64,000 nt of DNA. It comes from Welwitschia mirabilis (taxonomy: Eukaryota). The notes beneath the pieces were generated by a model, which made no database searches, was not told the DNA's origin, and worked only from the letters and a program-made list of their open reading frames with translations. Positions within the stretch are counted from its first letter, which is position 1; each line of letters starts with the position of its first letter. Shown piece after piece: positions 3,354 to 35,100 of the stretch. The stretch lies in NCBI GenBank assembly GCA_051453625.1, contig JBOZIK010000001.1, forward strand, positions 18,135,247 through 18,199,246. Direction: 5' to 3'. A program made the translations under genes and the position numbers.

Positions 3354-3371
3354 TCAGGATACAATCATAGT

Positions 3372-10189: not shown

Positions 10190-11234
10190 CAACTCTTCTT
10201 CTTCTTTTTTTTTTCTTCTTCTTCTTTAGAGTCTTCCTCTGACTCTTCTTCATCACCTCCTATGCAATCTGAACTAGTGGCCTCTGTGGCGGTATCAGCA
10301 ATATCATAACTAGCTGTAATGAGGGCTTTCTTCATGTGTTTAGTACGAGAGTCAATCTGTCTCAGATATGAAAGGGTCTCATTAAGAGAGGATTTCTTTG
10401 GAAAAAGAGATTTCAAAAATTTCTTATAAAAGGTAAAGATGTGCATGCGAGATAAAGTTGCACATCTAATGGGTGCCATGGATAAGAGGGTCTCCAGTTT
10501 TAGATGAAAGGTAACATAAATATGGCAGAAAATACTTGTGATAAGCATAGAATAGAGTAAAGCCTTAGTTTTGTGATACTCTAGTTGTGAGACCATATTC
10601 TTTAGTAATATGGCAGGAGCATTAATAGAATGCTCAGTCCCTATCAAATACATTAAATAGGCTCAATAGTAAAAGGCTTTATTACAATGTCTAGCCAAAG
10701 GTAAGAAGTTATAGATAAAAATCAAGTAGAGAAAGTGATATTTTAAAGTTGACAAAGAAGTAGACAGAGTGTGCTTCCAAGTATGCATCTTACCATAAAT
10801 ATCTCTGGTGATTGTAGGTTTATCCTCCATGATGTCCCTAAGAGGCCAAAACTCTTCTAGTTACCCCTTGAAAGGTTAGTTAGCTTTGAAATAAGATTGG
10901 CTGTCACTCTTGTCCGCTTGTCCAAAACGAGGGTTTCAAAGGTCCTAGAGTAATGATCATAAGAAGTATTACAGTAAAACATTCAAGTGAGAAAAGAATA
11001 TGTAGAACCAGAAACATCCAAAAAGTGATCAAGATCTTAATTTCTCAAGAGTTGAATAACTTTCCTAGGCTCTCTAAGGTTTAAAGTGGTTGCCAATCAA
11101 TCCTAGCACATTCCTTTTTTCTCAAACTTCTCTAAGAACTTGTCAATGTCCTCCTTTAACATCCCCTAGTAGAAAATAGTTGGATCCCTTGAAGGGACCT
11201 CCTTCACTTTCCTCTTGGATGAACTTTCAGCTAT
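10190..11234 (-). pseudogene. env-like (extra) ORF of Sirevirus, unit A1
   Basis: Includes the 202-aa track ORF, a YSFLT*MFYCN..TFETLV motif like plant-transposon env-like proteins, and an acidic tail. Lies between truncated pol and the PPT. Confidence 0.7.
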
Positions 11235-11659
11235 TTTAGGACTTTATAAGCAAAAAGGCTAAGAGAAAAACACTAGATCTAGAAGCAAAGCTCTAGATCT
11301 TAAAGAAAAAGCATTAGATCTGAGAGCTAAAGAGGGATAGAACATAATGAAATCAATTTAGGATCTCTTTCTTTTATAGGTTATGCGAAATAAGGTGAAA
11401 TGAAGAAAGAAATCAAGTCCATCAATGGTACTTCCACACTATAATCCATCAGGTTTGGTCAACTGCTTAAGATTTTGGTCAACCCATTGAGATGTGGGTC
11501 TAGAGTACTAGAAGGGGTCCGGGAGACCAGGCTTTTAGGCTGGTCATCCAGCCATTCTGGTCAACCAAATCATAGATCTGATCAACTGCCCTAAAATTAG
11601 CCAAAGGATAACAACTAAACCTTCAGTTCATTTTCATAATTGACAATTAAGTTATAGAC

Positions 11660-13747
11660 ACAGGGTGTTACACTAGAATTCCCCAAAAAATGTTCCATTT
11701 CAGCAAGATTTAGACTAACATCATAGTTTGCATGAAATAACTGATTAATCAATTTAGTATCTATTTTATAAATATTATCTACTTATTTTGCAGAAAATAA
11801 AAAAATATTTGTTTTCTCGTTTACAACTTTGTATTTTGATTTTTCAAAAATTACTTTGTGACCTTTGTTACATAATTGACTAACACTTAATAAATTATGT
11901 TTCAATCCATTTACATAAAGCATATCATCAATTTTAGGCAACTTACCTTCCTTAATTCATCCTATACCTTCTATTTTTGTTTTTTTGTTGTTTCTAAAAA
12001 TGATTTCTCCTCCATTTATACTCCTCAAGTATTAAAAGCTTGATTTTTCTCATGACATGTGCCTTGATCAACCACTGTCTAGATACCAAGAGTTTATACT
12101 TGTTCCTCTGAGAGATATTTATGTTAGAAAACTTTAAATATTGTTAGCGCTAATCCACTTAGTCTTATTAGACATAGGTGGTTCAATTCTCTTAGGAATA
12201 AATTTAAAAGGTAAGGTATTCGCAATTTCTGAGAAAAGTGTTAATTGTCTAATTTTGCAAAAAAAACTTTAAATGACCAAATTTACCATCAAAATTACAT
12301 GAAAGTTTAGAATCATACTTACTCTTCTAATTTACTAATTCTTAAGATTTTTGCAAACTAAAGCCAATACCTCATCTGTCTCTAGTAGGTTTTCACACTC
12401 TAAGCAACTATTCTAATTTAGAAGAGCTATCAAATAATTTATTTACAAAAAAAAAGATCTTTTACTTAAGAAATTAGGCTGGTATTGTCAGATGTTAGCA
12501 TATTATATTTCTCTTGCAATTCCTCGTTTTCTTTGGTGATAGTCTTCATTGTTCTATTCAAATCATTTATCTTCTTAGCTAGCTTTTCACATTCTTCATA
12601 CAACTCCTTACATGTGTCTTCTAACTCATCCTTTTCTTTATTTATCATATCCAAATCATTAATCTCTATTGTACTAGGATTATCTTTGAGTGATGTCACA
12701 AAATCCATAAAGGACAACCTTCTATCTCTGTCTAATTCTTAATTTGAGTAGCTTTCATCATCATCATTATCTCCATTATTCCATGTAGTAATGAATGAGG
12801 GATTGTTTGATTTTCTGTTATCTCTTCTTGTGTTAGGGCACTCATTTCCATATGACCAAATCCTTTGCATGAGTAGCATTAGATCTCTTTACCTTTTCTT
12901 GCTCCTTTCTATGTTTCAAATGATTCCTTTTTGCATTTATACTTGATTCTCCTTCCTTTTTCTTCTTATGAAGAAATTTTCTGAATCTTTTAACTAGAAG
13001 AGCTACTTCATCATTATCCAAGTCCTTATCTGATCTATCAGATCTATAGTCTTCCTACACACATTTTAAAGCAATACCTTTCTTCTTATCCTTAACAAAT
13101 CTAAGATCATAATTTTGCAAATTACCTTGAAGTTCTTCTAGTTCCATTGTATTAATGTCCTTTCTCTCTTTGATGGCTGTGACCTTTAGTTCAAATTTCT
13201 TTGGTAGAAATCTCAAGACTTTCCTTGTTACTTTTCTTTCCCCCATGTGTTCTTCAAGGCTTGTCATTGAGTTTATAATATCAGTAAGTCTAGCAAAAAA
13301 TTCTTGCAATATTTCTTCTTCATCCATATGGATATATTCAAATTTCGAAATAAGCATTTAAAGTTTTACTTATTTTACAGTTGAGGTTCCTTCATGTGCT
13401 ACTTTGAGAATGTCCCAAACTTCCTTAGAATGATTACAGTTTACTATGTGTTTGAATTCATCTATACACACTGCACAAAATATGGCATTAAGAGTATCAG
13501 CATCTATGGTGGATTTTGACTTGTCAGTGATGATCCATTAATCTCATGTTTTGGGAACTAGGATAGTGTTGCTAGTTACATCAGTTTGAGTTAACATAAG
13601 CATAATGTAATCTTTGTAGATGACTTTTTCTATGTCAGCATCTAAGAATCTAAGAAATATTCTCATCCTAACTTTCTGGTAAGCATAGTTTAACCCATCA
13701 AACATAGGTATATGAATGGTGAAAAAACCATTAAATGGATTACTAAT
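11660..13747 (-). pseudogene. gag: Copia gag-protease, truncated at the GAG-pre-integrase region, unit A1
   Basis: FDGLNYAY, UBN2-like EEEILQEFFARLTDIINSM, zinc knuckle CYSCKGFGH, coiled coil, protease WYLDSG*SRHM and HNLLSVSQLC. Confidence 0.9.
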
Positions 13748-13797
13748 TTTAGGGTTCTAAGGTTAAGGTTGGTTAAAATCTAAAGAAGGCTTAACTT

Positions 13798-13810
13798 AGC
13801 TCTAATATCA
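13798..13810 (-). promoter_or_regulatory. Degenerate PBS (tRNA-iMet), unit A1
   Basis: TGATATTAGAGC versus canonical TGGTATCAGAGC, 2 nt from the LTR end. Confidence 0.75.
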
Positions 13811-13812
13811 AA

Positions 13813-15769
13813 TGATAAGATCTAGAATCCTAGAAGGAGGGAGGTGTATAGGTTATTTTAGAAAAAAATTCAATACAATAATCTAAATAAATCCAAACTA
13901 AAATAAAAACTTTCATACAAAAATGTACTAATCTAAAATGTATAAAATATAAAAAAATAATGTAAGTAAATAAATAAAAACTGAAAGCACAAAAATACTA
14001 ATTTGATGCAAGCCAGATTTATAGTGATTCAGGAAACCCCCTACTCCACTCTTGACGATCAGCTTATCCCTAAGCTAGATCTCAGATCTTTGTTACTCCA
14101 CTAGATATTCTAGGTTTACTTGCAACCTTTACAAATGGAATTTTCTAGGCTTAGTTTCAACCTTTAGAATGGACTTTTCAAGGTTTAATCTCAACCTATA
14201 AAATGGACTTTTTAAGGGTTAGTCTCAACCTTTAGAACAGACTTTTCAAGGCTTAGCCTTAACCTTTCACAAAGTAAGGTAGTACTAGTGATGTCTTTAG
14301 AGCATGGATATTACTTGTTCATGATTTAGNNNNNNNNNNTGATTCGATCTTGAAGATAAAGAGGATGCCAATAGTTGAAATTCTTTTGTCAGAAATATAG
14401 ATGCCAAGATGCAATAGTAAAAGTCACCATAAATACAATGCTTGATCCTTCAGATCCAATAGATTTGTCTAAATGAAAATAGTTCAAAAAAAATTCTTTA
14501 GTCATCTATGTTTTAGCTATTTATATTGAAAGGCTTCTAGGGTTTATTACATTTGAAATGCACTTTTAATGGCTATAAAATGGCTACGTAATGGCTACAC
14601 AATGAATACATAATGTTTAGAAAAATTTTACTTCCGTTCCGTCTAGCCGACTCCACAAAAATCTGGTTGACCCTATGTGGTGCCGTGAATTACATAGATT
14701 GCTTGAGTAAAAAATTTAATTGCCCCAATTTCTTATGGCTCCTTGTTCAGTTGACTCCATCTGGGTCTAGTCGACCGCAGTTCAGTCACTTGCTACTTTA
14801 TCCAATNNNNNNNNNNNNNNNNNNNNNNNNNNNNNNNNNNNNNNNNNNNNNNNNNNNNNNNNNNNNNNNNNNNNNNNNNNNNNNNNNNNNNNNNNNNNNN
14901 NNNNNNAAAAAAAACTAACCTTTTATCATATATGTCTTAGCTATTTATATTAGAAGGCTTTTAGGATTTATTACATTTGAAATATACCTCAAATGGTTAT
15001 AAACAGCTAGAAAATAACTATCTAACAACTACATAATAGATATATAATGTTTAGAAAAATTCACTTTCTATTTTTTTTAGTCGACCCCACAAAAATTCAA
15101 TTGACCCCATATGGTATCATGATTTATACAAGTCACCCAAGTAAGAAATTTGGTCATCCCAATTTCTTATGGCTTCCTATCCAGTCAATTTCATTTGGGT
15201 CTAATCAACCTTAGTTCAGTTACCTGCTATTTATTTGGTCATCTGCTCCTCTGATAAAATTTCCTTCTAGTTTCCTGCATTGAATTAGTCGACCCCTTTA
15301 GGTGTCTAGTCAATACCATGAGAATCGGCTTAGGTGTACGAGTTACATAGTGCTCAAGTCTAGTCGACTCCATTTTAGGTCTGATTAACCCCTTGTTATT
15401 AACCAAGGATATTATTTATTAGGTCTTCAACTCTCATCAACCTCATAAAGGTCTAATTGATCTCTTTCCATTTAGTTTAGGAACAATGATTCTTGAGGTT
15501 ATAAGTTTAATTAACCCCATCAAAAATCTAGTTGATCCATTTAGATGTAGTTCATTTTCTATCTGCTTCAGGTGCAGTTGACCTTTTGAAAATCTGGTTA
15601 ACTCCATCTTGAGGATAAATAATCTAATAGGTTTCTAGAGCTCAGAAGTTTACAATTTTAGTTTTATCTTTCAAACTGTAAGTAATTGAACATCTTCTAC
15701 ACAAGATACACAAAATTTGCTATATAGAAAATATTAGTTTGACATCAATTAATAAAACATAATATAACA
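13813..15769 (-). repeat. Internal shared LTR block of array A (probably two LTR copies joined across a 100-N gap)
   Basis: PBS on one side and PPT (AAAGGGAAAGAT) on the other. Segment 14490-14806 recurs, diverged, at 14907-15235. Confidence 0.8.
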
Positions 15770-16369
15770 ATCTTTCCCTTTGACATTAATGGTAAATAAT
15801 ACTTAGTTGTAAAAAATTATAACTCTTAGAAATGATCTACCTTACAAAATGCCTATTTGCAAAGTAATATTCTATTTGAAATAATTGAAAGCATTTTGAA
15901 CAAACCAATTTTGTGCTCTAAATGAAATAATTTAATATGTATATTTGAGAATTTAAAAAGCATAACTTTATGATAAACATAATGTAATAATGTAACTTAT
16001 TTAACATTGAATCAAATTTCACAATTTTTAGTTTATTTTCAATGTTAAAAGACTTTAAAACTTTTCAAGTTAAGTAGATATGATACCAAAAGAAAATATA
16101 TTTAACATGTATGATGTTGAAAGGTATAAATAGATTTAAGATATCAAATGAAATAAGATTTTATGCTAAAATAGATAAGTGCATTTTATTAGATATAAGC
16201 AAACATTACAAGATCAACATACAAGCATTACAAAATAGAAGTACTCATTAAGAGCATACAACTAAAATCATATAAATGACATTTAACTACACAACTAATT
16301 CTCCCCCTTTTGACATCAATGACAAAGGAGAGAATACAAAACACAATTTAAAAAATTTTAATTAAACTC

Positions 16370-17401
16370 CTCCTCCTCTTCTTCTTCTTCTTTTTTAGAG
16401 TCTTCCTCTGATTCTTCTTTATTACCTCCTGTGCAAGATGAACTAGTGGCCTCTACTGAGGTATTAGTAATATCATATCCAGTTGCAATGAGTGCTTCCT
16501 TCATATGATTGGTACAAGAGTTAATCTATCTCAGATATGAGAGGGTCTCATTAGGAGAGGATTCCTTTAGAGAAGGATAATTTGAAGATTTTTTAGAAGG
16601 GGAAAAACATGCATGCAGGATAAGGTCACATGCCTAATAAGTGCCATAGGCTGGAATCTCTCCAGTTTGGGATGAAAGATAACAAGGAAATGATAGCAAA
16701 TACTTGTGATAAGCATAAAGTAGGGTAAATTCTAGTTCTATGATACTCTAACTATAAGACCATGTTATTCAATATTATGGCAAGAGAATCAATAGAATGC
16801 TTAGTCCCTACTAAATACATTAGACATGCTCGATAGCAGAAGGCCTCATCATGATGGCCAGCCAAGGGTAAGAAGTTATAGGTAAAAATTAAGTGAAAAA
16901 GCATTATTTTAGAATTAACAAAGAAGTAGACAAAGTATGCTTCAAACTGTGCATCTTGCCACAAGTCTCCCTAGTAACTGCAGGCTTATCTTCTATGATA
17001 TTCTAAAGAGGCCAAAACTCTTTATAATTACCACATGGAAGGTTAGTCACCTATGAAATAAGATTAGCTATCATTCTTATCCACTTTCCCAAAACAATGG
17101 CTTTAAAGATTCTAGTTTTATGGTTAAAATATGCATTATAGTAAAATATTCTTGTAAGGAAAGGATAATTAGAACTAGAGACATCGAAAAAGTGATCAAG
17201 ATCCTAATCTTTTAGGAATTGGATAACTTGTTTGAGCTCTCTGAGCTCTAAAGTAGCTATAGATCACTCCTAGTACACTACTTTATTCTCAAAATTTTTA
17301 GAAAACTTATTAGTATACTCCTCTAACATTCCTTGGTAGAAGATAGCTGGATCCCTGAAAGGAGCCTCCTTTACTCTTCTCCTAAATGAAATTTTAGCCA
17401 T
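16370..17401 (-). pseudogene. env-like ORF, second copy
   Basis: Colinear with 10190-11234; ATG at 17401. Confidence 0.7.
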
Positions 17402-17791
17402 TTTAGGACTTTGCAAGCAAAAGGACTAAGAGAAAAACACTAAAACTGGAAGCAAAGCTCTGGATCTTGAAGAAAAAGGCACTAGATTTAAGAGCTAAAG
17501 AGGGCTAGAACACAATGAAATTAATTTAAAGTCCTCTTTCTTTTATAGGTTATGCGAAATAAGGAAAAATGAAGAAAGAAATTAAGTCCACTGATGGTAC
17601 TTCCGTACTGTAATCCATCAGGACTGATTAACCACTCAAGGTTATAAAGACCTGTCAAAATGCAAGTATATAGTACTAGAAGGAGTCCATGNNNNNNNNN
17701 NNNNNNNNNNNNNNNNNNNNNNNNNNNNNNNNNNNNNNNNNNNNNNNNNNNNNNNNNNNNNNNNNNNNNNNNNNNNNNNNNNNNNNNNNNN

Positions 17792-18308
17792 AAATTAAGT
17801 GAAAAAAGTGGTATTTTTGAGTTAACAAATAAGTAGACAAAGTGTGCTTCCAAATATTCATCTTACCATAAATCTTCCTAGTAACTGCAGGCTTATCTTT
17901 CATGGTTTCTCGAAGAGGCTAAAATTCTTCATAATTACCACTTGGAAGGTTAGTCAGCTCTTAAATAAGATTGGCTATTACTCTTATCTACTTCCCCAAA
18001 ATGAGGGTTTCAAGGGTTCTGGTATCATGATCAAAAGAAGCATTACAGTAAAACATTCTAGTTAAAAAATAATAAGTAGGACCAGAGACATTCAAAAAGT
18101 GATTAACATCCTAATCTCTTAGGAGTTGAATAACTTCCTTGAGTTTTGTGAGCTCTAAAGTAGCCACAAATCAACCCTGAAATACTACTTTCTTTTCAAA
18201 CTTCTCTATGAACTTTTCAAAAAACTCCTCTAATATTTCTTAGTAGAAGATATCTAAATCCCTTAAAGGATCCTCCTGTACTCTTCTCTTGGATAAACTC
18301 TCATCCAT
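17792..18308 (-). pseudogene. env-like ORF, third copy (5' part, runs into gap)
   Basis: Diverged repeat of 16885-17401; ATG at 18308. Confidence 0.65.
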
Positions 18309-18729
18309 TTTAGGACTTTGCAAGTAAAGAAAAAAAGAGAAAAATACTAGATCTGAAATCAAATCTTTGGATCTTAAAGAAAAAGCACTAGATCTAAGAG
18401 TTGGAGAGGGCTAGAACATAATGAAATCGATTTAGGATCCTCTTTCTTTTATAGACTATGTAAAATAAGGCAAAATGAAGAAATAAATTAGGTTCACCAA
18501 TAGTACTTCTGCACTATGATCCATTAAGTCTAATCAGCTGCTCAAAGTTCCAGTCGACTCATCGAGACATGGATCTATAGTACTAAAAGGGATCTGCACA
18601 ACTGATCTTTCAGGGTAGTCGACCAATCATTTTCGGTTGACCAGATCTATGATTCATTTGACCACCCTACAATCATTCAAGGAATAGTGACTAAATCTTT
18701 AAATCATTTATATGATTGACAATTAAGTT

Positions 18730-20816
18730 ACAGACACAGGGTGTTACATTAGATTTCTCTAGAAAATGTTTAGTTTCAGCAAGATTTAGACTAACATCAT
18801 AGTTTGCATGAAATAACTGATTGATTAATTTTGTATCTATTCTATAAATATTATCCACTCATTTTGTAGAAAATATAGAAACATTTGTTTTCTCATTTAT
18901 AACTTTGCATTTTGATTTTTCAAAAAGTACTTTGTAACCTTTGTCATATAATTGACTTACATAATAAATTATGTTTTAATCCATTTATATAAAACACATC
19001 AACAAGTTTAGACAACTTACCTTCCTTGATGCATCCTGTACCTTCTACTTTACCTTTTTGTTGTTTTCAAAAATGAATTCTCCTCCATTTGTACTCTTTA
19101 TGTATTGAAAGCTTTATTTTTCTCCTAACATATACCTTAAGCAACCACTGTCTAGATACTAACTGTTTGTACTTGTTCCTTTGATAACTATTTATGTTAG
19201 AAAACTTTGAAGATTATTAGCTCTAACCCACTTAGTCTTATTAGACTTATATGGTATACTTTTTTTAGGAATAAATTTAAAAGATAAAGTATTTGCCATT
19301 TTAGAAAAAAGTATTGATTGTCTAATCTTGTAGAATAACTTTATATAATCAAATTTATCAAAAAAATTACATGAAAGTCTAGAAGCATACTTTTTCAGTT
19401 TACCTATTCTTAAGATTTTTGTAAACTAAGTCCAATACCTGATTTGTCTCCAGTAGGATTTTGCACTCTAAGCATCTATTCCAATTTAGAAGAGCTACTA
19501 GAAAATTTATTTACAAAAAAAAGAAAGCTTTTTCACCTAAGAAATTAGGTTGATGTTATTAGATTTTAGCACATTATATTTTTCTTCCAATTCCTGCTTT
19601 TCTTTGGTGATAGTCTTCATTGTCTTGTTTAATTCATTTATCCTCTTAGCTAGCTTTTCATACTCCTCATACAACTCCTAGCATATATCTTTTAACTCAT
19701 CCTTTTCTTCATTGATCATATCATAATTATCGAGCATCAATTTCCCAAGAACATATTTAAGTAATGGCACAAAAGAAATAAAGGACAACCTTCTATCTCT
19801 ATTTGATTCTTGATCTGAGTAGGTTTTATTATCATCATCATTGTCATTGTCTCATGTAGCAATTAATGAGGGATTCTTTGATTTTTTATTATCTCTCCTT
19901 GTGTTAAGGCACTCATTTTTCATATAATCAAATCCTTTGCATGAGTAGGATTGGATATTTTTACCATTTTCTTATCCTTTATATGTTTCAAATAACTTCT
20001 TTTTGTATTTCTACTTAATTATCTTTCCTTTTTCTTCCTATGAAGAAATTTTCTAAATCTTTTGGCTAGAAGAGCCACTTCATCATCATCCAAGTCCTTA
20101 TATGATCTATCAGATCTATCTTCTTGCACACATTTTAAAGCTATACCTTTCTTATTAATCTTTAATAAATTTAAGCTCATATATTTCCAAATTACCTTAA
20201 AGTTCTTTTAGTGCCATTGCATTAATGTTCTTGCTCTCTTTGATGGCTGTAACGTTCAGGTTGAATCTTTTGGATAGGGATTTCAAGACTTTCCTGATCA
20301 CTTTTCTTTCCTCCATGCATTCTTCAAGACTTATCATTAAGTTTATAATATCAATAAGTCTAGTAAAAAATTTCTACAATGTCTCTTCTTCATTCATATG
20401 GATATGTTTAAATTTTGAAATAAGCATCTAAAGTTTTGCTTATTTTACAATTGAGGTTCCTTTGTGTGCTACTTTGAAAATATCCCAAGCTTCTTTATCA
20501 TGGTTACAGTTTACTATGCATTTAAATTCATCTATACATACTGCACAAAATATGGCATTTAGAGCATAGGCATCTATGGTGATTTTTGACTTGTTAGCGA
20601 TGGTCCATTTGTCTTGGGCTTTGAAAACTAGGATAGTGTTGCCATTTAAATTAGTTTGATTAACATAAGCATAGTGTAACCTTTGTAGATAACTTTCTCT
20701 ATGTCAGCATCTACGAATCTAAAAAATATTTTCATCCTAACTTTTAAATAAGCATAGTTTGATCCATTAAACATAGGTAGATGATCAGTGCAAAAACCAT
20801 TAAATGGATTACTCAT
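18730..20816 (-). pseudogene. gag: Copia gag-protease, truncated at the same point as A1
   Basis: MSNPFNGFCTDHLPMFNGSNYAY start and YLDSGCLR protease motif; colinear with 11660-13747. Confidence 0.9.
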
Positions 20817-20867
20817 TTTAGGTTTCTAAGATCAAGATTAATTAAAATCTGAAGAAGACTCAACTTA

Positions 20868-20879
20868 GCTCTGGTACCA
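20868..20879 (-). promoter_or_regulatory. PBS (tRNA-iMet)
   Basis: TGGTACCAGAGC, 2 nt after the LTR end ...CCTATCA. Confidence 0.85.
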
Positions 20880-20881
20880 AA

Positions 20882-23018
20882 TGATAGGATTAAGAACCCT
20901 AAAGGGGGATATGAATAGGTTCTTTAAAAATTCAATACAATATCTAAAACAAAACTTGCATTAAAAAAACTAATCTATAATGTGCATAATATGATAAAAT
21001 GATAAAAGTAAAGAAATAAAAACTGAAAGCACAAAAATACCAATTTGATACAAGCCAAATTTATAGTAATTCTGGAAATCTCCTACTCCACTCTCAATGA
21101 TCAGCTTATCCCTAATCTAGATCTTAGATCTTCATTATTTCATTAGGTATTCTAAGTTTATCTATAAGTTTTACAAATGAACTTTTCTAGGCTTAGTATC
21201 AACCTCTAGAATGGATGTTTCAAGGCTTAGTCTTAAGCTTTAGCATGGACTTTTCAAAGGCTTAGTCTCAACCTTTCATAAAACAAGGTAGTGATGTAAT
21301 AATGCTTTTAAGCACGGGTATCATGCATTCTTGAATTAGTAAATCTGATGGAGCTCTCCTCTTATAGAATTAAAATAATTGAAGCTCTTTTCCAACCTTG
21401 AATGTAGAGAGGATGCTAATAGTAGATCTCCTTCGGTTAAAAATATAGATGTCAACATACAAAAATGAAAGTCACCCAAATACAGTGTTTAATCTTTCAG
21501 ATCCAATAGATTTTTTAAAATAAAAGTAGTTCNNNNNNNNNNNNNNNNNNNNNNNNNNNNNNNNNNNNNNNNNNNNNNNNNNNNNNNNNNNNNNNNNNNN
21601 NNNNNNNNNNNNNNNNNNNNNNNNNNNNNNNNNNNNNNNNNNNNNNNNNNNNNNNNNNNNNNNNNNNNNNNNNNNNNNNNNNNNNNNNNNNNNNNNNNNN
21701 NNNNNNNNNNNNNNNNNNNNNNNNNNNNNNNNNNNNNNNNNNNNNNNNNNNNNNNNNNNNNNNNNNNNNNNNNNNNNNNNNNNNNNNNNNNNNNNNNNNN
21801 NNNNNNNNNNNNNNNNNNNNNNNNNNNNNNNNNNNNNNNNNNNNNNNNNNNNNNNNNNNNNNNNNNNNNNNNNNNNNNNNNNNNNNNNNNNNNNNNNNNN
21901 NNNNNNNNNNNNNNNNNNNNNNNNNNNNNNNNNNNNNNNNNNNNNNNNNNNNNNNNNNNNNNNNNNNNNNNNNNNNNNNNNNNNNNNNNNNNNNNNNNNN
22001 NNNNNNNNNNNNNNNNNNNNNNNNNNNNNNNNNNNNNNNNNNNNNNNNNNNNNNNNNNNNNNNNNNNNNNNNNNNNNNNNNNNNNNNNNNNNNNNNNNNN
22101 NNNNNNNNNNNNNNNNNNNNNNNNNNNNNNNNNNNNNNNNNNNNNNNNNNNNNNNNNNNNNNNNNNNNNNNNNNNNNNNNNNNNNNNNNNNNNNNNNNNN
22201 NNNNNNNNNNNNNNNNNNNNNNNNNNNNNNNNNNNNNNNNNNNNNNNNNNNNNNNNNNNNNNNNNNNNNNNNNNNNNNNNNNNNNNNNNNNNNNNNNNNN
22301 NNNNATGACTATAAATGGCTAAAAAATGTATACATAATGGATACATAACGTTTAAAAAAAATTACTTTGCATTCTGTTCGGTTAACCTTATATGGTATTA
22401 TGAGTTATACATGTTGTCTGAGTAAGAAATCCGGTTGCTCTAATTTTTACAGCTCCCTATCTAATCAACTCCATCTGGGTCTAGTAGATCCCAGTCTGGT
22501 TGCCTGCTATTCATCCATCTGTCCACTTATTTGATAAAATTTCTTTCTAGTTTTTCACAGTGGATTCCATGACAATCAACTCAGGCATACCAGTTGCACA
22601 GTGCTTAGGTCCGGTCAACTCCATCTTAGGTCCAGTAAACCCCTTATCATTCAGTCTAGGGATACTGTTAAGTTTTCAAATCTAATCGACCTCATAAAGG
22701 TTCGATCGATCCCTTTCCATTCAGTTTAGGGACACTGGTTCTTAAGGTTATAGGTCCAATCGATTCCATCAAAAATCTAGTTGACCATTCTAGATGCAGC
22801 TCATTTTTTATCTGCTTTAGGTTTGGTTAATCCTTTAAAAATCTAGTCGAACCCATCTTGAGGATAAATAAATTAATAAGTTTCTAAAGCTTAGAAATAA
22901 ATAATTTTAGTTTTATCTTTTAACCTATAAATAATTCAACATCTTCTGTACAAGATACACAAAATTTGCTATATATAAAACATTAGTTTGACATTAATTG
23001 GCAAAACATAATCTAACA
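20882..23018 (-). repeat. 5' LTR of array A (contains an N gap)
   Basis: TGATAGGAT...ATCTAACA termini; homologous to 8043-9584. Confidence 0.88.
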
Positions 23019-23256
23019 AAAGGAATCACAAGAACTAGAGGATAGCCCCTTTCAACCTTTTGTGGAAGAGGAAGGCACCTAACAACCTCTAAATAATGAT
23101 AAACCTAATGAAGTAGAAACCAAATGAAGGGAAGTCCTAATAATAAAACTCTCTAAGAAGGGAAAACGACAGAGAACATTGCAAATACTTCCTAAGCCAC
23201 CATTGAAGATACTATAAGAAAAGATCAAGCACCCAAAAAAAAGTAAAAACACCTCT

Positions 23257-26200
23257 AATAAATTATCTCATATGGAATTACAGGGGATTAGGGTCCTCCT
23301 ACAAGAAAAAAAACCTATAAAATATGATCAATTAATTTAATATCGATTTAGTTTACTTACATGAAATGAAGATAAAAAATGATATGAAAAAAATAATTTT
23401 AAGATAGCAATGGAATTTCCTTAATGTTACAGCCTAAGGCAACTCTGGTGGACTCATAATATCTACCAAAAGAGATGCAGATCTGATTCATAGCAGTAAG
23501 AACCATATCACAATTCTTCTAATAAAAGAGATTTAGACTGTTACAAATCTTTATAATCCCCAAAATAATTAGGACAAGGCTTCTATCTTGGACTGAATCA
23601 AGAGGTTAGTAATAGACAAATCCAAATGGCTTATCCTAGATGATTTTGATTAATGTCTTCATCACTAAGAAAAATCAAGAGGTAAATAACTAGAATTTCA
23701 GAGGTTCATCAATACTAAAAGACTTTTTGGCAAGAAACTCTCTCATAGATGTCCCTATTGATGAGTGCAAGTATACTTGGTCAAATAGAAGAGTGAGTAA
23801 AGATCTAATTATGTCTAAGATTGATAAAGTTCTAGCTGGGAAGAATCTAGCTAAACTTCCATTTAAAGCTTGTGGTTTAAATAGGATTACTTCAGATCAC
23901 CATCTTATCAAACTTAGAGTGGGGGCAAATTTTTCCCAGAAAACTCTATTTCATATGAAATGATATTGGATTAATTAGACTAAAACTAGAATGTTAATGA
24001 AAAAAATAAGAACATGGTATAATGGAACTTAATTCATAATGTTTCTATATAAGGGCCTAAGTACCCTAAAGACCTATGTAATAGATTGGAGAAGCAAAGA
24101 TAAAGAGAAGTTTGAATCAAAAACTAAGCTTAAAAAGAAACTCAAAAGAATTCAAACTGAGTAGGAGAAGAGAGGTGATCAGAAGAGCCTACGGAACAGA
24201 GAATACCAATGTCTAATGAATCTCTAAGAAATAAATAATGATGAAAAAACTACTAGATAGAATGCTCAAGGATCGAATGACTAAAAGAGAGTAATAAACA
24301 TACCAAATTATTATTTTAATAGGCTAACTAGCATAGATCAGATAACAGGACTAGAAGATTATCCATTAGAGGTCAAACTATAGATAATGAAGAGGATATA
24401 GCTAAGGAATTGCAGGCCCATCTTAAGAAAATCTTGAAATGGGATGATATAGCCCTAGTCCTTATTCTTGAAAATAAGAAAATCTCAAGTGAAGATAACT
24501 TTATGTGATCTAAACCTCTGAGTAAAAAGAAGGATTTATTTATCATCAAATTCATGAAGAGTAATCGAGCCCCTATCCCTAATGAATGACCAGTTAAACT
24601 TTTTAAATCTCACTTATTTATTTTAGAAAATAAAATTTATGATATGATGTAGGGAGTCTTTTAGAATAAGTGGATTCCCAAGGAAATAAATATAATTAGA
24701 ATGGTTGTTATATCAAAAAAAAAGGTGGGATGCTAGCAAACCAAAATATTTTAAGCTTCTAGGTATTTGTAATGTTATTTACAAAATCCTTGCGAAAATC
24801 ATGATTAGCTGTATTACCCTTCTTCTTTCTAATGTAATTTTAGAGAACCAAGTTGGCTTCATCTAATCTAGGTATATTCAAGATCAAATCCTTTTGACTT
24901 ATGAGATCGTTGACTCTATCAAAAAATATAGATTTCTTCTTCTTATTGCTAAATTGGATATCACTAAAGCTTTTGATTTGGTTAGTTAGCAAGCATTAGA
25001 CTATATCCTTAGGAAAATAGATTTTTCTCAAGATTATATTAACCTCTGGCTAGACATGTAGGCTTCAACTAAATTTAGTATGGAGGTTAATAATCATAGA
25101 TCAAACTTTTTTAGTAGGCAGAGGATTAAGACAAGGGAACCCCCTATTTTCATACCTTTTTCTATTTGTAATGAATGTGTTATAGGTTTTCTTAAAAAGA
25201 AATGGAGTTATAAAAATCACAATTAGAGGTCAAACCTTTATCAATAATCACTATACAGATGATACTCTCATTGTGATCAGGGCTTCATGTCAATAAGTAA
25301 AAGTAATTAAAAATTCTGTGAACATCTTTACAATGGCAACAGGTCTTCATACCAACTAGAATAAATCAAGAATCCATACTTTATGTAGAAAAAGTATCAG
25401 AGGGGGTGAAATCACTTGAATCCTGAGCAAAAAATTAGGAGATGTATAGGATATATACCTAGGTATTTCTTTTCGAAATTGACACAAGACCTTTACCTAG
25501 AATTACATCTTGAAATCCATCCAAAAGTGGTATAACTTATGACAAAATAACTTTCTCTCATCCAAAGCTAAAATTATTCTCACAAACTCTTGCTTAGTTT
25601 CCTCTTTTCATTACATATCTTTTATTGTTGCTTTCCTAGAGAAATATCATCTAAAAAATTAATAGGATCTTAAAAGAATTTATTTGGTCAAGACGAAAGG
25701 ATCACCATCAAATTCATCTCTATAAATGGGAGACTACTATGCACTCAAGAGAATCAAGATGGTGGGGGATTCAAACAAAAAAGAATTACATCCTCATTAG
25801 AGCTCATAGAAGTTTAAAAAGACTGCAAGAAGGAGGTTATTCCTAGTGTGATTTAATCAACTACAAATACAAATATTAGATCACTAATCATGGGGATTCC
25901 TACTTAAGGAAACACCTCAGTAAAACTCGATAACAACTTATTAACTTAAACATCTATTAGTTTGATTCAACTAAGTAAATCCTTTTAAATAAATATGGGA
26001 AAAATAACTCATACAATAAATATTGAAAAGGTCAAATTCTAGAAAAAATTAAGGTCTTTTATTAGTTAAAAGACTATAATAGAATCTCAACTAGAGACCA
26101 ATTACTTAAGAGGGGATTCTAAGTGGATACAAACTATCCCATCAACTAGTCAAATTTAGAAACAACATAGTATCTATTTCATCATTGCATTTGGAGCAAA

Positions 26201-26880
26201 GAATTAATCTTCATTATGAAGAATTACTATCAAACCTGTAATGCCCCTAACATGTATTTATTAAATGGATTTCACTTGATATTTTGGTAGATTTAGAGGA
26301 TAAAAAATGATCTTATTTTCAATAACATCTTTCTACCCTTTTTTGTAAATACAGTAAGGAGGATCAAGTACCTACATTTTTAAATCATACTTACTATGGA
26401 AGCCATGACAATAATTGATCCTTCTGATCCTAGCCTCTTAGAAGGCTTTGCTACCCTATGGAAAAAAGTGTAGGCAATGGGATGGAAACCCCTTCTACAC
26501 AAGCTTAGAGGATACTAGAAGGTTGATATCACCCTATGTTATAGATAATAAAGAGGAGGACACACCATGTTTATAAGAATTCCTATAACAATTCCTAAAG
26601 ACTCCTTCTCTAGGCTACTGGAAATCCCTGTAGAAGGAAAACATATTTTGTTTGGAAGCAGAGGAAAAAAATAAATACTTCACTTCTTCCCTAATGGGAT
26701 TCTTAAATTGCCAAGAGGGCACATCAGAAAAAATATGTTACTGCCCCCTAGAGACTAGGCATAGATCTTTTGAACTACTACTTCATTTAATCGGGGAATT
26801 GCTCCAAACTTTTAGATATTTATTTTGCTTTTCTTAAAAATCTTGACTTAGGACATTAGGTAAACCTATCATTTTTTTTA
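23257..26880 (+). pseudogene. L1 ORF2 (AP endonuclease, reverse transcriptase, Cys-rich zf-RVT, possible RNase H-like start)
   Basis: WNYRGLG, YTWSNRR..SKIDKVL..SDHHLI, ICNVIYKILAK, NQVGFI, KLDITKAFD (24951), GLRQGNP (25123), HYTDD (25249), YLGI, LFHHCIWSK (~26175) and WKP..KVD (~26483). The 3' end is uncertain. Confidence 0.9.
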
Positions 26881-26881
26881 T

Positions 26882-27619
26882 CCAAGTTATTAAACAGAAG
26901 GATTTATCAAGGCACTTAGGCTTAGGTTTAGCCCTTTGAAAGCAACACAAGAAGTTAGGACAAGAGAGGTTCCTCCTTCTCCTCATCATCTCTCACATCA
27001 AACTCCTCCTAGGAGTATCTTCAAAAGAAGAACTACTTTATAAAGGACCCCTATTCTAGAGGAGATTACTAGGCATGGCAACCCTAGCTAGAAAGGAGCA
27101 ACTCTACTTCTAGGCTATTTAGAGGAGACATATTTACCCTTGACGTAACAAAAGATAACTTAGGAGTCTAAGCCTGGCATAGCTCAGGAACTAGCTTAGG
27201 ATCAATCATCATCCAACTCTCAGAAGTAAGGTAGGCATGGTCAGATATCCTCTACTCTAGCATCAGGCCCTAGCTTTTCTTATAACTCGAATTCAAACTT
27301 TTTCCTAGTAGAAATCCTGCTTCAATCTTAAGAAGACATTAACATGAATGCTGTTCGATGGGAGGTTCTACTAGCAACCATTTAATATCTGAAGAGATAC
27401 CCCTTTATCACATTAGGACTCTCTTATAAAGCCCTCCATCAAGCTAGCAAATCAAGCTATAGGAATAAAGCCCTAATTCTATACTCAAACAAAAATCCAG
27501 CAGGTGTTAAATAATTTAAGAAGATAAATCAAGCATTTGATATTTTCTTTGATGATATGGGTAGATTCTTTTTTGACCACAATTATGATAAGGTGTTTCC
27601 ATTTTATGGAGGGCTCTAA
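26882..27619 (+). pseudogene. L1-borne extra reading frame: P/S/Q-rich linker plus C-terminal DnaJ (J) domain
   Basis: 27398-27577 translates to YPFITLGLSYKALHQASKSSYRNKALILYSNKNPAGVK*FKKINQAFDIFFDDMGRFFFD. This matches J-domain spacing (PY..LG......IK.AYR.LAL..HPDKNP....FK.IN.AY..L.D...R..YD). Confidence 0.75.
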
Positions 27620-27920
27620 TCCTCCTCCCTTAGGTCTATTCCTTATTAAAATTAAGTTTTTTTTTTTTTAACTCTTGGTATCAAGAGGCATTTTTGCCCC
27701 TAGTCTATTAGAAGAATAATGTTTTTCTTCTTTCATGCATTTACTATTCCAGATAGGCAGTTCCTCGTGACTGTGTCGCTAAGGGGATGGTTTCACCTCC
27801 ATTTTTATTTTATTTCATAGTTATTTCTTCAACAATTAGTGAAATAACCCTTTTTATAAATAGTTTAATTGTTCTATCATTTGTAGGTGTTATTACCACC
27901 TAATGTACATTTTCTAGTTT

Positions 27921-27946
27921 TATATATATATATATATATATATATA
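27921..27946. repeat. (TA)n tract at the LINE 3' end
   Basis: TA run lies at the junction where X sequence resumes. Confidence 0.9.
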
Positions 27947-28199
27947 CACTTTTTTTTTTAAAAAAAGGGTATAGTACAAATATCATTTTCATGGATTAAC
28001 TCTACACATACATGTAAGAACTTTGAAAGAATATGAGGATGTAATTAGAAGAGTATAAATGTTTAAAGTTATATTTGGTTCATCCTATTACATTTCTATA
28101 CTTTTCAAGAGTCCAAAGCATTAAAATCATTATAATAAGAAGAAGTATTTTGTTCAACTAGATAAGGATTAATATCATGAACTTTATGAATAAAATTAG

Positions 28200-29736
28200 T
28201 ATTATTATTGTTCCTTGGTAATTCCACAGTGTTAGAAATATACAAGTGAACTATTATGTTACTTAAACAAACTTTCATGTAACTATTTTTATAATTAATA
28301 AGAGTGTTTGAAATTGCTAGAAAATGTCTACCTAAAATAACTAGAACTAAATTATACTTTATTAAATTTATTTATAACATAATGAAATTAACTAGAATGT
28401 ATTAATTATCTATTCAAGTAGTTACATATTTAATAATTCCTAATGATAATTTTAATAAGTTATTTATTAACTACAATTAGATTTTTTTCTTTTTAAGATT
28501 ATTAAGGTCAAGTTTTTGTAAACCAAGTGGGGTGAAAGATTCACGCTTACTTCTAGACCTAATAAGGCTTGCTTAAGATGTTTATCTCTAATTATAGTAG
28601 TGATTGTAAGGAAACCCGAATATTTATAATTTAAGGGAATTTAGTCTTTCATGATTGCACTTGTCTACTAGGATAGAAATGTCTTTTTCTTAACATGAAT
28701 TTTCCTCTTGATTGTACACATACCTTTTAGGAATTTAGCATAAGAGGGATTGTTTTAAATAATGTTTAATAATATCATGTTGATGTTAACCTCTTTAAAA
28801 ACCTCTAAGACTTATAATTATTTATTTAAAATGTTTTCTTCCTTATGTTATTGTGGAAATGATAGATATTCTTAGTAATTAGGTAAAGTCATTTCTAGAG
28901 TTTCATCCTTCTCATTATATTCTATTAGAGTTACTTCTTCTTTAGTAGCATTTTGTTCAAATTAATTATTAAATTCTTTTCCACTTCTAAGATGAATGAC
29001 CCTAGTTTTTTTTATTTGCTTAGGCTCTAATCCTTTTATGAATATAACTTATTTTAGGTTTAGCTATGAGCTCATGGGAATTTTACTAGATTATCTATGA
29101 TTTAAAGAAGAGAGAATTTTAATGGTAAATTTCTTAAATCTATTAAAAGAGTAAGTATGTTGATGTGTAGTGTGTTCTAGATTACTCAAGGAGGAGGAAT
29201 GTTACTTAAGAGTTTATTCAAGATTACAAATAGTTTGGATTTGATTATGGTTAGTTTAGACTACCTTATAATTATTTTGAACTTGGGTTTCTATGAATTT
29301 CCTTAATGATTCCTCTAATAGAGTAGATGATAAAGGTTGTTATTAATTTTATAATGATAGAAATGGATTTCTTAATTAACTAGCATGGTTTTAATCATAG
29401 GAATTATCTTATCTCCAAGAAAACTTGGGATGGTTCCTCCACTTAGGATTGTAAGTATTTAAATATAGATCATTTTTCTATTTTTCCACTAGTGTCTTAT
29501 GGCATTAACTTATTCTTTTATAGTATTTTAAAATATGAATATATAGGAACACTCACTTGTTTCATGGGAGTTTAGGTAGTATATGAGACATTGAGATTTG
29601 AATGTTGATTATTTAGATGAATTGGAAAGGGGTTATACTCTTCTTAATAGTTCATCTATTAAGTTATTAATGTCAAAGTTATTAAGCACTCTAAAAATAC
29701 TTATGGATCTAATGGATGATTGGGATATAGGTGGTT
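28200..29736 (-). pseudogene. Athila-like gag C-terminal part and aspartic protease, X unit 1
   Basis: NTYNPKWRNHPKFSW, IHLRSGK, IPSYAKFLKGMC, ALLGLEVSVNL (decayed DLGAS) and IILGRHFLA. Confidence 0.85.
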
Positions 29737-31310
29737 TGTTGGAAAATCTAGTTTTGATCATTCCACTTATCAAATATTTCATGTATTTATAAAGATGGGT
29801 TATTGCAAAGTAAAATTAGATCATCATAAGCATAAGATGATGTTAGAACCTCAAGATAATATCTCATGAGAAGGATCTATTAAAGATAAAAATTAGTTAT
29901 TTAAAGACATCTAGAAAATTAAAGACATTTCAGGTAAAGATGTCTAGAAATTTGAAGACATCTTAGATGTACTAAAATTTAAGCCATATGCTTAAGATAA
30001 TTATCTCATCAAAGATAACTATTCTAAAAGTTAAACCTAACAGAAATAAAAACATCTACTTGTTTGAAGATGGCTATACTAAGCTAAAATAGGTAATAGA
30101 TTTAATTTAGTTTTTGACTAATATCTTATGTTTTAGATGAGCTATTAACTTATACATCATGGATTCATGATCACAAAGGTCGAAGGATTATATAGAGTAA
30201 GTTTCATCAAAGTCTAGGTAAGTTCACTAAAAATGTCTACAAGATAAAGACATCTAACTATTAGTAGACATCTATAAAATTGAAGAGGTCTTAGATCAAA
30301 GTTTATGTCGATAAAAATAAAAAGTATGCACTTGATGCCTAGACATTTCCTATTTGTTACATAATGGTTACAAAGTTAAATGGATACCTTTCAAGTCAAA
30401 TGACTAGATCTTATTCAATGATATAAAGGCTCGACATCATAATACAAATCATAACTTTTGGAACTTTAATGAACACATAGCTCTTAAACTTTTAGCACTC
30501 AATGATGATATCAAATATAGAATGAAGATTGCATGGGTGAACGAAACATCTCATGAAGGATCATAAGCATAATTTGCAAATGAGCTTACATAATCTACAT
30601 CATTCATTCTTACATCCCTTATTATATCATTTATCTATACTTGTGAAAACTATAAAAACAGGGAACTCAAGTTTTCTTTAAAGCTACATCTTTTAGGATT
30701 ATTTTTTAATTGTATTTTTAATTATACATTGTTATACTATCTTATTAATGAATATTGTTGTAAGTCCATTATTAAATCAATATCTTTAAAAGGAAACACT
30801 TGTATGATTGTGTGTCTAAGATAGTGCTTATGATTAATTACTTATTATAAGGTTACTGGTAAGCCAGAAAACCATTATTTACTTATAGATGAAAGAGTGC
30901 TATCTTACAAGGAGACTCTTATTATTGTAAGGTTTGTGATGTACTTGTGAAAACCAATATTCCTTTATGAGTGAGAGAATGCTATCTTGCGAGAAGATTC
31001 TAACTATTGTAAGGCTTGTAATACACCTGTGAAAACCACTATTTCCCTATGGGGAAGAGAATTCTATCTTACAAGAAGACTCTCACTTATTATAAGTTTG
31101 GTAATGCACTATAAAACCACTATTTTCTTATAGATTAATAATATCTAGAGGTGTAAGTAAAAGCTACCATCTATGTATGAACATACGAGGGTGGAAAACC
31201 AAAATATCTTAGTAAGGTATATTATTGTGCATATTTCATTCTATTATTAGGTTAAATTTTTTATTTGGTAGAATTAATTCACCCTTCCCCTTTGAGTTTA
31301 ATGATCCTTA
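29737..31310 (+). repeat. 5' LTR of B
   Basis: Direct repeat of 48730-50284, with AGACATCT/AGATGTCT motifs and ~80-bp tandem repeats at 30845-31135. Confidence 0.9.
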
Positions 31311-32100: not shown

Positions 32101-35100
32101 TATTGAGTTATGTTATCAAGTTAATGTCAAACTAACATATATTTGTGCAAGTTAAATATGTTGTAAATTTGTTAGATTAATAAAGTTTTATATGTTAGAC
32201 ATAAAATTGGTTTTTTTCTTAGATTTCATTCTTTCTTAAAAAGACTATCAACTTTGATAAGAGATTGATTGGATTCAAGAAGGATTTGACTAAACCTAGA
32301 TAAATGGGATCAACTAGACCTAATAAGGGGTTGACTAGACCTAGATAAAGGCAGTCAACCAAATTTTACATGGGGTTAACCAGATTATGAAATGTAAGCA
32401 AATTGGATCAACTAGAAGAAAAAGGATTTGACTGAGTTAACTAACAGTAATTAATCAAGTCAACTAGATCCTTTAAGAGGTCAACCAGTCATAGCAGAAG
32501 CTAAATGTTTCAGACTATTTTCTAGGTACTACTCCTTCTATTTCTAGTTATTAAAGTATTAGATTTGCTTTTTAATTTTTTAAACCTATTTCCTATACAA
32601 ATGAATGAATATAAATCTTTTTTATGGTCAATTATCTAGAAGAAAAACACATTTATATTATTGATACCTAGTAGTCAAAAGCAATCTACTACACTGTATG
32701 GGTTTATACATGTGAACTACTTTTTAAGAAGTGTACTCCATTATTGTTGTACTTTAGATCTAGTAAACCTAGTGCTTTCAAGAATAGTATCCTCACTAAA
32801 ATCTTTGCTCTATAAATGTTGAGATTAGGCCTCAAAAGTCCTCTTGCAAAGGTTATAGGTTGACTTAGAAATCTAAAAAGATAGAAATAAGAATACAATA
32901 TTAGGATTGAAGCTGATATCCAAGAATGGAGTAGTAGAATTTCCCTAAATCACTATAAATCATTTTGTCTAATGTAATTTTTTAGTATTTTCATTTTAGT
33001 TATTTTCTTGAGCTTTCAATCATTAAGATTCTTCTAATATAATCTTGTCTTTTTTTCCAAATATATTACTATCTTATTATGAATATTTTTAAGGGTAATA
33101 TCTTCTTATAAAACCTATTTATCCCCCATCTAGATTTGTAGATATTTTATTTGATATCAAAACAGGTTGAGTCAATAGTAGATTTTAATAAATCTTAACT
33201 CATAACCTTATCCATAAGTAATCCCTCAGATGAATCCTCTACTAGAAGGTCATCGTTATTTGATGAAATCAACTATGCTTATTGAAAGACCAAGATGAGA
33301 ATTTTCCTTAGGTCTCTTGATGTTGACATGGAAGAGGTAATTTACAATTGGTATGAACAACCTACAATGACCAAAAAGGATAGTAGTGGAAATACCAAGG
33401 CCATTATGAAATGGAGAGATCAGTGAACTTCTATTAATAAGGATAACACAACTATTGATGACCATGCTCTTAATGCTATTTTTAGTACACTTTGTATAGA
33501 GGAATTCAAGAGGATTGTAAATTGCAAATTTACCAAAGATGCATGTGATATTCTTGAAATAGTTCATGAAGCTACTTCCATCGTAAAATAATTAAAATTG
33601 TATATTCTCATCTCAAGTTCGGAGATACTCATATGGAGGAGGAAGAAACTCTTCAAAAATTATTTACCAAGTTGATAGATATAGTGAACTCAAAAGTGGT
33701 AAGAAAAGTAAGAACATCAACTTGATGGCCATAGATAAACTACAAGGTAATCTTCAAACTTAAAAATTAAAATTTTCTAAATATAAGAAGAAGAATCTTA
33801 CATTAAAAAGTATGCAAGAGGAAGCCAAATTTGAAAGATCAGATGATAACCTTGACAGGGATGATGTTATTAAAAAAAATTTATATAGGAGAAGAATAGA
33901 GGGGAAATCAAGTAAGGGATCTAGAAGGAGTCAATCTAAGCTAAAGAGAGATTAAGATAAATCAAAAGAGATCTAGCGTTATGCATGTAAATGATATCAA
34001 CATGTTATGAATAAATGTTCAAATAAAAAAAGGAATCAAAGAAAATATAAGAGACCATCCTTTATGGCTAATTGGAATAACATGAAGGAGGAAGAAGGTA
34101 GCAGCTCTGATCAAGAGTTAGAGGGAGATAAATGACTCTTTTTCATGATAATAGTTTCATTCTTAAATGAGGTTCATTATTCAACTAAACTAGATAATTT
34201 AGATATCATAAAGGAAGGATAATAAAAAAATAGAAGATACCTATCAAGAGTTAACTGAGAATGTAAAAATTAAAAAAAAATAGTAAAGTCTTTAAACAAG
34301 GAAAAGGAAGCTTTGGAAGCTAACTATAAAAAAAATTTCAGAAAAGAATATGGAGCTGACTCAAGAGATAAAAAGTTTGTTTCACTTTATAAGAAAATTT
34401 TTTGATAGTTCTAGCTAATTAGAACATATTCTTGAAATAGAAAAATCGGTCCATGATAAAAGAGGTATTGCATTCACTTCCAAAAAATCATCTGCTTTTT
34501 TAGATTAAATAACATGCTAAAATAATAATTTCATTTCAAAGATTACCCATTATTTTCATGGCAAAAATAGGTTACTCAAATATTTTGCAAATTCAAAAGG
34601 TTATGCTTGTTTTAACTCATATAATTACTTTTTCTTTTAAATTTTTTTCTAAAATTTCTACATCATAATAATCCAATAAAATTATATGGGTAAGAGCTAA
34701 CAATTTTAAAAGATTATTGATTCAAATAGCTTTCAAGATTAGTAGCAGAACTTATTGGTACTTGGATAGTGGATGCTCTCATCATGTGACAAGTAACAAG
34801 TTAAGATTCCAATGCTTAGATGACTTTGATGGAGGGGAAATAACCTTCGATGATGAAGTAAAGGCAAAAATTGAAGGAATAAAAATCATTAGTGGAGGTA
34901 ACATGCCTAAACTTAATAAAGTTTTTTATGTAAATGGCCTTAAACATAATTTACTTAGTATTAGTAAAATTTGTAATAAAGGTCATAAAGTTGTTTTATT
35001 ATCAAAAGTTTAAAGTCATGCATGGTAGAATAGATGAAGTTCTTCTTAAAGTAAATAGAATAAATAAAAATATTGATCAATACTCTTCTATTTGTCATTT

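Follow-up and report, generated by a model that had tools for sequence, protein, structure and literature searches.

Whether a retrotransposon may encode a co-chaperone of its own is the question raised by a decayed stretch of DNA from Welwitschia mirabilis. A reading made from the sequence alone had proposed that an L1 retrotransposon at this locus carries a DnaJ/Hsp40 J-domain at its 3′ end, either as a fusion to ORF2 or as a third open reading frame (ORF3). The window considered here, i.e., the whole stretch of DNA that was analyzed, comprises 64 kb, and the features bearing on the question are compiled in Table 1. The answer depends on whether the J-domain is real, what lies in front of it, how often the combination recurs in the genome, and whether the J-bearing unit belongs to the LINE or merely lies next to it.

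Table 1. Features around the J-domain relic (positions are counted from the first letter of the window).
Feature	Positions	Strand	Evidence
Third copy of a repeat of ~1.5–2 kb (other copies at 8061–9585 and 13906–15770)	20951–23019		blastn within the window, junction sequences, contig breaks
Decayed ORF2 of an L1-type LINE, no ORF1	23020–26383	+	RVT_1, zf-RVT, frame reading
Start of the second reading frame, ATG and 90 codons homologous to P0002	26396–26668	+	phmmer, tblastn, paralogue letters
Stretch without recognizable homology, 13 stops in the shared frame	26669–27397	+	Pfam, stop counts
J-domain relic, class A/B-like, with DNAJA1/dnj-12 loop spacing	27398–27583	+	Pfam, phmmer, paralogue letter at 27447
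TAA closing the frame of 26942–27619	27617–27619	+	sequence
T13 run (an A-run on the minus strand, hence no plus-strand LINE tail)	27657–27669	+	sequence
13-mer matching 26370–26382 in 12 of 13 positions	27795–27807	+	repeat search
(TA)13 CAC T10 A7 microsatellite	27921–27966		sequence

The composition of the window sets the frame for all further observations. Base counts gave a GC content of 28% and an observed-to-expected CpG ratio of 0.14 for the 64 kb. CAG and CTG were counted 243 and 218 times, respectively, compared to 1411 occurrences of TAG and 1288 of CTA, making the former approximately sixfold rarer. The window is eroded by long-term deamination of CG- and CHG-methylated cytosines, which is a plant-like pattern. 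Passages of the Welwitschia genome study (PMC8275611) give a GC content of 29.07% genome-wide and of 28.77% for transposable elements, with an attribution to deamination, and the decay pattern of the window agrees with the genome GC value and the long-term deamination described in those passages. Rfam and tRNA scans of the window gave no match.

Homology to J-domains was evaluated at the level of profiles and of solved structures. With TAA and TAG translated as glutamine, residues 157–209 of the frame (27410–27568) matched the Pfam family DnaJ (PF00226) with 22.2 bits (E = 1.5e-4), and with X at the stops the score was 19.1 bits (E = 1.4e-3). The profile check suggested with the sequence-only reading hence gave a divided outcome: a DnaJ match was obtained at E = 1.5e-4, but its 22.2 bits, like the 19.1 bits, lie under the curated cut-off of 27.8 bits. 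A phmmer search against solved structures recovered 21 distinct PDB sequences at E ≤ 1, with 11 at E ≤ 0.001; named J-proteins accounted for 19 of the 21. The best match was C. elegans dnj-12 (33.1 bits, E = 5.6e-7), aligned without gaps and with a loop of the DNAJA1-type length. Because the matches to solved structures reach E-values down to 5.6e-7 and are nearly all named J-proteins, the J-domain homology is genuine and above chance, and the description of the stretch as J-domain-like holds.

Compared with the J-domains of class A/B Hsp40s (dnj-12, human DNAJA1 and DNAJB1, and yeast Sis1), the likeness is gapless over approximately 58 residues and includes helix II, the loop with its KNP spaced as in DNAJA1 and dnj-12, helix III, and the R..YD at the end. 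Unlike the class A/B Hsp40s, the relic has YSN in place of HPD, contains an internal stop, and scores below the Pfam cut-off; moreover, it is located at the end of its frame and not at the N-terminus of a full J-protein, with few G/F-region residues following it. At the HPD position (27482–27490), the codons TAC TCA AAC (Tyr-Ser-Asn) are each one transition away from CAC CCA GAC, and they are followed by AAA AAT CCA (KNP), exactly as had been read previously. The His-Pro-Asp tripeptide itself is absent from the window copy, an internal TAA occupies 27512–27514 within the J-domain, and LS has become FF in helix III through C-to-T changes. Judged by its codons, the J-domain of the window copy is dead: with its stops and no HPD, it could not be active, which agrees with the earlier view of this copy.

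Several further searches at the protein level were empty. No homologous protein was recovered for P0001 (near lengths) or for the J part of 80 aa (longer lengths, 124 aa and above), and a metagenome scan with the two-row alignment produced 102 pattern matches, none of which was confirmed. A Pfam search on both strands of 26300–29599 and in the plus frames of 27600–29599 gave no match.

The J-bearing stretch lies directly behind the ORF2 of a LINE and in the same orientation, in accordance with what had been claimed for it. The L1-type nature of this LINE was corroborated by a reverse transcriptase (RT) at 24741–25377 that is split over two frames: RVT_1 was matched with 46 bits (E = 6.7e-12; cut-off 29.6), and a second piece was matched in the other frame with 25.9 bits (E = 9.6e-6). 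The zf-RVT match at 26033–26203 (E = 1.6e-4) amounted to 22.7 bits, below the cut-off of 27.5. The best solved relatives of the RT piece are R2 and LINE-1 ORF2p structures, with E-values of 2e-4 to 1e-3. An endonuclease-like start was recognized by eye from motifs near 23266; Pfam gave no match for an APE-type endonuclease in three frames, and the only structure match of this region was a weak one to an exodeoxyribonuclease (E = 0.88). After the Cys motif, the frame continues for 60 codons to the TAA at 26381–26383, which ends the ORF2 tail and presumably corresponds to the place where ORF2 tails of plant LINEs usually end.

On its 5′ side, the LINE is truncated at 23019, where a repeat with further copies at 8061–9585 and 13906–15770 ends, and therefore no target-site duplication can be paired; none was found for the LINE. 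As regards the 3′ side, the J-domain had been described as lying upstream of the tail of the element. This tail could not be located: no A-run of at least 7 nt occurs between 26672 and 27959, and the only candidate run is the T13 listed in Table 1. RNA reads of the runs X14 and X17 partly overlap conserved stretches of the LINE in 23020–26383. The unaligned flanks of these reads differ from the window and are alike among each other (e.g., at 24846 and 25784), and full-length reads of the locus were absent; as the flanks are mutually alike, related LINE copies appear to be transcribed.

Behind the ORF2 stop, a second reading frame begins almost immediately. Its ATG at 26396 is located 12 nt past the stop, in the frame and on the strand of the ORF2 tail, with neither an A-run nor a UTR in between. 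A phmmer search of 1.84 billion representatives identified P0002 (E = 4.9e-22), a Trinity ORF of Welwitschia mirabilis and thus an expressed transcript, and a tblastn comparison with the 91 codons showed 51 of 91 identical positions without gaps, both sequences starting with M. P0002 is the sole credible protein relative found for the window. The other two of the three representative matches at E ≤ 0.001, P0003 and P0004, were set aside as long repetitive proteins with 26–27% identity. Of the two layouts that had been considered, a separate ORF (ORF3) fits better than a fusion to ORF2, given the ATG 12 nt after the ORF2 stop and its match to the first residue of P0002.

The nature of this N-terminal part is less apparent than its homology to P0002. 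A search for homologues of P0002 at longer lengths returned nothing, and no Pfam family, including Transposase_32 (PF20167) and ATHILA ORF-1 (PF03078), was found at E ≤ 10 in P0002 or in 26393–26770. In a feature-based atlas, P0002 was nearest to unnamed plant clusters (0.94), the nearest named clusters being Transposase_32 (0.89) and ATHILA ORF-1 (0.88), which serve as leads only. The mean pLDDT of the AlphaFold model for the N-terminal part was 49.3, too low for a fold search.

Between the N-terminal part and the J-domain, Pfam revealed no homology over approximately 730 nt. The frame from 26942 to 27619 on the plus strand contains nine internal stops, all of them TAA or TAG, and ends in TAA, as had been reported. 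Little else that was said about this frame was sustained. That it runs without frameshift carries no weight, as the shared frame from 26396 to 27619 contains 22 stops in 408 codons compared to 25 and 38 in the other plus frames (shuffle P = 0.17). Within the middle part, its 13 stops compare with 16 and 14. The supposed P/S/Q-rich linker consists of 11% S, 10.5% Q (half of which are stops translated as Q), and 6.6% P, a composition that does not bear out the description. However, of the 22 stops in the shared frame only 1 is TGA, whereas the other five frames have 39 TGA among 164 stops (Fisher P = 0.027); this scarcity hints that the shared frame was formerly open over its whole length. The N-terminal part and the J-domain share a frame, for which the chance expectation is one in three. 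One paralogue contig of the DNA run X1 (depth 21) joins 26876 to 27392 and skips 26877–27391, with 66 letters on its shorter side; the skipped 515 nt are not a multiple of three.

The prevalence of the region was determined by mapping contigs of the DNA runs X1 and X5, as well as reads of the RNA runs X14 and X17, on 22400–29000 with a likeness of at least 80%. The resulting contig tables represent copy counts, linkage across 26384–26395 being outside their reach. Contigs identical to the window showed a depth of ~9–10. For X1, contigs carrying a paralogue letter numbered 44 at 26345 (in the ORF2 tail), 34 at 26538, 29 at 26589, 18 at 26926, 24 at 27247, 48 at 27447, and 23 at 27608, mostly at about single-copy depth (6–9 each), and X5 was similar. 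Since each of the two DNA runs contains 18–48 diverged paralogous contigs over the unit, the unit is repeated and exists at some tens of separately diverged loci, so that the expectation of more than a single copy proved correct. The change from 44 contigs in the ORF2 tail to 34 behind the ATG also means that the contig count is smooth across the ORF2/ATG junction. Within the 64-kb window itself, no second copy of the unit was detected by blastn or tblastn.

The letters of the paralogues are informative as well. In the N-terminal part, G>T at 26538 yields F, as in P0002, and C>A at 26589 yields K where P0002 has E; both letters shift the sequence towards P0002. In the J-domain, G>T at 27447 (418 of 428 in depth, 48 contigs) yields the canonical isoleucine of helix II. 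The summed depth falls from ~990–3600 in the ORF2 tail to ~120–260 in the unit, i.e., about four- to eightfold, and reaches 51–61 at 27294–27305. Over the J core, RNA reads cover 27485–27538 only, with 12 reads in X14 and 13 in X17. By our own count, the flanks of these reads are ~67% identical to the window with many transversions, and they translate to canonical residues of helices II and III. From their letters, these reads stem from a related, undecayed, and expressed J sequence, not from the window locus; no RNA run was listed as containing this locus.

A local depth peak was observed in the J core (27508–27521), where the summed contig depth amounted to 7,979–14,890 in X1 versus 1,299–1,579 in X5, the X1 flanks being at 144–428. 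At 27512 and 27521, most contigs carry G, likewise the RNA reads. This peak may represent a high-copy, expressed J-bearing sequence whose abundance differs between the organism labels of the two runs.

Taken as a unit, the sequence behind ORF2 spans ~1.2–1.5 kb, from 26396 to ~27620–27920, and the J-domain is its last recognizable part. Our preferred reading, held tentatively and with slightly less than even confidence, is that this unit is the 3′ module of one LINE subfamily, the link to the LINE being positional. It is favored because any other origin needs a breakpoint that is flush with both the end of ORF2 and the start of the second ORF: the start codon of an expressed ORF comes immediately after the complete ORF2 tail, with neither UTR nor A-run, and the contig counts are continuous across this junction. 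Several observations count against it, namely, the drop in summed depth, the lack of a poly(A) tail and of a LINE target-site duplication, the 12/13 direct repeat around 26383–27794, the shared frame being not significantly open, the 515-nt gap in one paralogue contig, the absence of HPD and the sub-threshold Pfam score of this copy, and the nearest named atlas neighbors of the N-terminal part, which belong to accessory ORF families of LTR retrotransposons (leads only). The fall in depth speaks against a module because the 3′ end of a LINE is not expected to be rarer than its body; depth contributed to the body by other LINE subfamilies would account for the difference. Somewhat less probable, and the main rival, is an explanation in which the unit (26383–27794) is, or lies within, a separate mobile or duplicated sequence that had captured a J-domain fragment and was inserted at the ORF2 stop, the LINE 3′ UTR (~150 nt) resuming at 27808 and ending at the A7 run of 27960–27966. 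The unit is indeed bracketed by the 12/13 direct repeat (26370–26382 and 27795–27807), which is a possible target-site duplication around 26383–27794; the A7 run is located exactly at the start of the next repeat (~27962, with a second copy at 57092–58881 that is 77% identical), and the depth falls on entering the unit. The atlas likewise places the N-terminal part next to unnamed plant clusters and then to Transposase_32 and ATHILA ORF-1, and a weak Transposase_32 match was obtained in the copia-like repeat of the window. Yet a comparable 13-mer match was encountered in 21 of 347 random placements within the window (6%), neither a poly(A) nor a terminal inverted repeat or an LTR is present at the ends of the unit, and Pfam detected no Transposase_32 in P0002 or in the window copy at E ≤ 10. 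Such an insertion would further require two coincidences, i.e., an ATG 12 nt inside the inserted sequence and its landing on the ORF2 stop codon; no joint from 26382 to 27808 was present among the 15 listed of 647 joints, which is a weak argument.

Rather improbable is an origin as a one-off chimera, in which the RT of the LINE switched template onto an RNA with a P0002-like ORF and a J-domain, or a 3′ transduction took place, so that the unit would be confined to this LINE copy. L1 is known to give rise to template-switch chimeras and 3′ transductions, the LINE and the unit share their orientation and meet at a sharp junction, and the paralogues could be copies of the donor family. However, L1 chimeras of these kinds either retain the 3′ UTR of the LINE together with its poly(A) signal or have a poly(A) tail at their end; whereas the joining of foreign sequence to a LINE in the same orientation resembles chimeric retrocopies, the window shows neither a LINE 3′ UTR or A-run between ORF2 and the unit nor an A-tail after it, and the contig counts pass smoothly over the junction (44, then 34). 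Hardly credible, finally, is the notion that there is no J-domain at all and that the resemblance arose by chance in AT-rich junk, or that a live gene uses a ciliate-type code with TAA and TAG as codons for Q. Compatible with this notion are the Pfam score under the curated cut-off, the ten stops of the frame, which are without exception TAA or TAG, and the many frames that open under table 6. The opening of these frames is, however, explained by TGA being the rarest stop in DNA of 28% GC. The notion conflicts with the matches to solved J-domains (E down to 5.6e-7), with the paralogue letters that restore canonical J residues, with a LINE that is frameshifted under any code, and with the CHG and CpG depletion and the Welwitschia relative, which indicate a plant. 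The ciliate code was accordingly rejected: it opens the frame, but many others too, while the LINE remains frameshifted and the DNA is plant-like.

Under the LINE-module reading, ORF3 would have consisted of the N-terminal part and a C-terminal J-domain that was captured from a host J-protein gene and replaced the 3′ UTR, and the module would have been copied along with the LINE. We infer that the N-terminal part and the J-domain formerly constituted one ORF and that the unit travels with the LINE. Deamination of methylated cytosines would then have eroded the module, converting HPD to YSN, LS to FF, and CAA/CAG to TAA/TAG. The architecture, if real, would be class-C-like, with a specific N-terminal part and a C-terminal J-domain, and the ORF3 protein would presumably recruit host Hsp70 to the ribonucleoprotein (RNP) of the element. 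A more far-reaching version, which we consider unlikely, assumes a gnetophyte L1 lineage with a selected third ORF, encoding a minimal class-C-like J-protein by which host Hsp70 would be recruited to the reverse transcriptase or the RNP of the LINE; intact and transcribed members would still exist, represented by the transcript P0002 and by the RNA reads whose J core is undecayed, and the window would hold the deaminated corpse of one member.

Several known systems are relevant for the interpretation of this locus. Plant L1-type LINEs carry RVT_1 and zf-RVT in one orientation, as does the LINE of the window. Smyshlyaev and colleagues are said to have described in 2013 that some plant L1 lineages added an RNase H domain behind the RT, a modular change to which that of the window would be comparable if the unit belongs to the LINE. 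The RNase H of plant L1 elements differs in being fused into ORF2 and conserved within lineages, whereas the unit of the window starts from a separate ATG behind the ORF2 stop, does not encode a nucleic-acid enzyme, and is putatively linked to the LINE by its position.

Accessory ORFs (aORFs) of plant LTR retrotransposons offer a second comparison. In passages of PMC11728184, a 3′ aORF of Athila LTR elements is described that contains Transposase_32 (PF20167) and is related to ATHILA ORF-1. The N-terminal part of the unit resembles such aORFs as a lineage-restricted, fast-evolving accessory ORF of unknown function within a retroelement. Differences are that aORFs belong to LTR elements, the element in the window being a LINE, and that neither Pfam family matches at E ≤ 10. 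No J-domain is named among plant LTR aORFs in the excerpts of the aORF literature considered, including those of PMC11728184.

Retroelements depend on host chaperones, and viral J-domains are known from the T antigens of polyomaviruses. The latter represent selfish elements with their own J-domain engaging host Hsp70, as proposed here for the LINE. They differ in genome type, no homology beyond the J fold is implied, and their function has been shown, whereas the unit of the window is known from its sequence. Among the papers listed by full-text literature searches, no retrotransposon carrying its own J-domain was found. Should the unit belong to a LINE subfamily that has intact members, it would constitute a natural case of a retrotransposon encoding its own Hsp70 recruiter and, if true, a direct handle on the use of chaperones in target-primed reverse transcription. 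Should it be no more than a neighboring repeat, the locus would still clearly exemplify the capture of a host J-domain fragment and its amplification to tens of copies, as well as the loss of coding sequence to methyl-cytosine deamination in a plant genome of exceptionally low GC content; this would be an ordinary outcome.

The surroundings of the LINE are composed of further repeats. The region 8061–23019 is an array of a unit of ~6–7 kb, with terminal-repeat-like blocks at 8061–9585, 13906–15770, and 20951–23019. On the minus strand, its inner part encodes copia-type Retrotran_gag_2 (E = 1e-21) and Pol_BBD (E = 1.3e-16), in addition to the weak Transposase_32 match (E = 5e-4), and the array looks like a decayed copia-like element in an LTR-internal-LTR-internal-LTR arrangement. 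Part of the copia-like inner part (11847–14166) recurs in inverted orientation at 32813–34997 with 64–76% identity. At the right-hand end of the array, an 80-nt piece (22938–23019) shows the highest depth on 22400–29000 (bin 22842–23062: 52,422 in X1 and 43,897 in X5). Hundreds of contigs break at 22938 and 23016–23019, those at 23016–23019 continuing into other sequence, and the piece represents the end of a very abundant repeat.

Downstream of the unit, no Pfam domain was found in 27600–29599. Two further repeat families were recognized, with 27962–29734 matching 57092–58881 (77%) and 29733–31302 matching 48726–50276 (77%). Three N blocks of similar size, at 21533–22304 (772 nt), 55942–56685 (744 nt), and 60018–60776 (759 nt), each lie within repeated sequence, and gaps of 10 and 100 N are present at 14330, 14807, 17692, and 54805.
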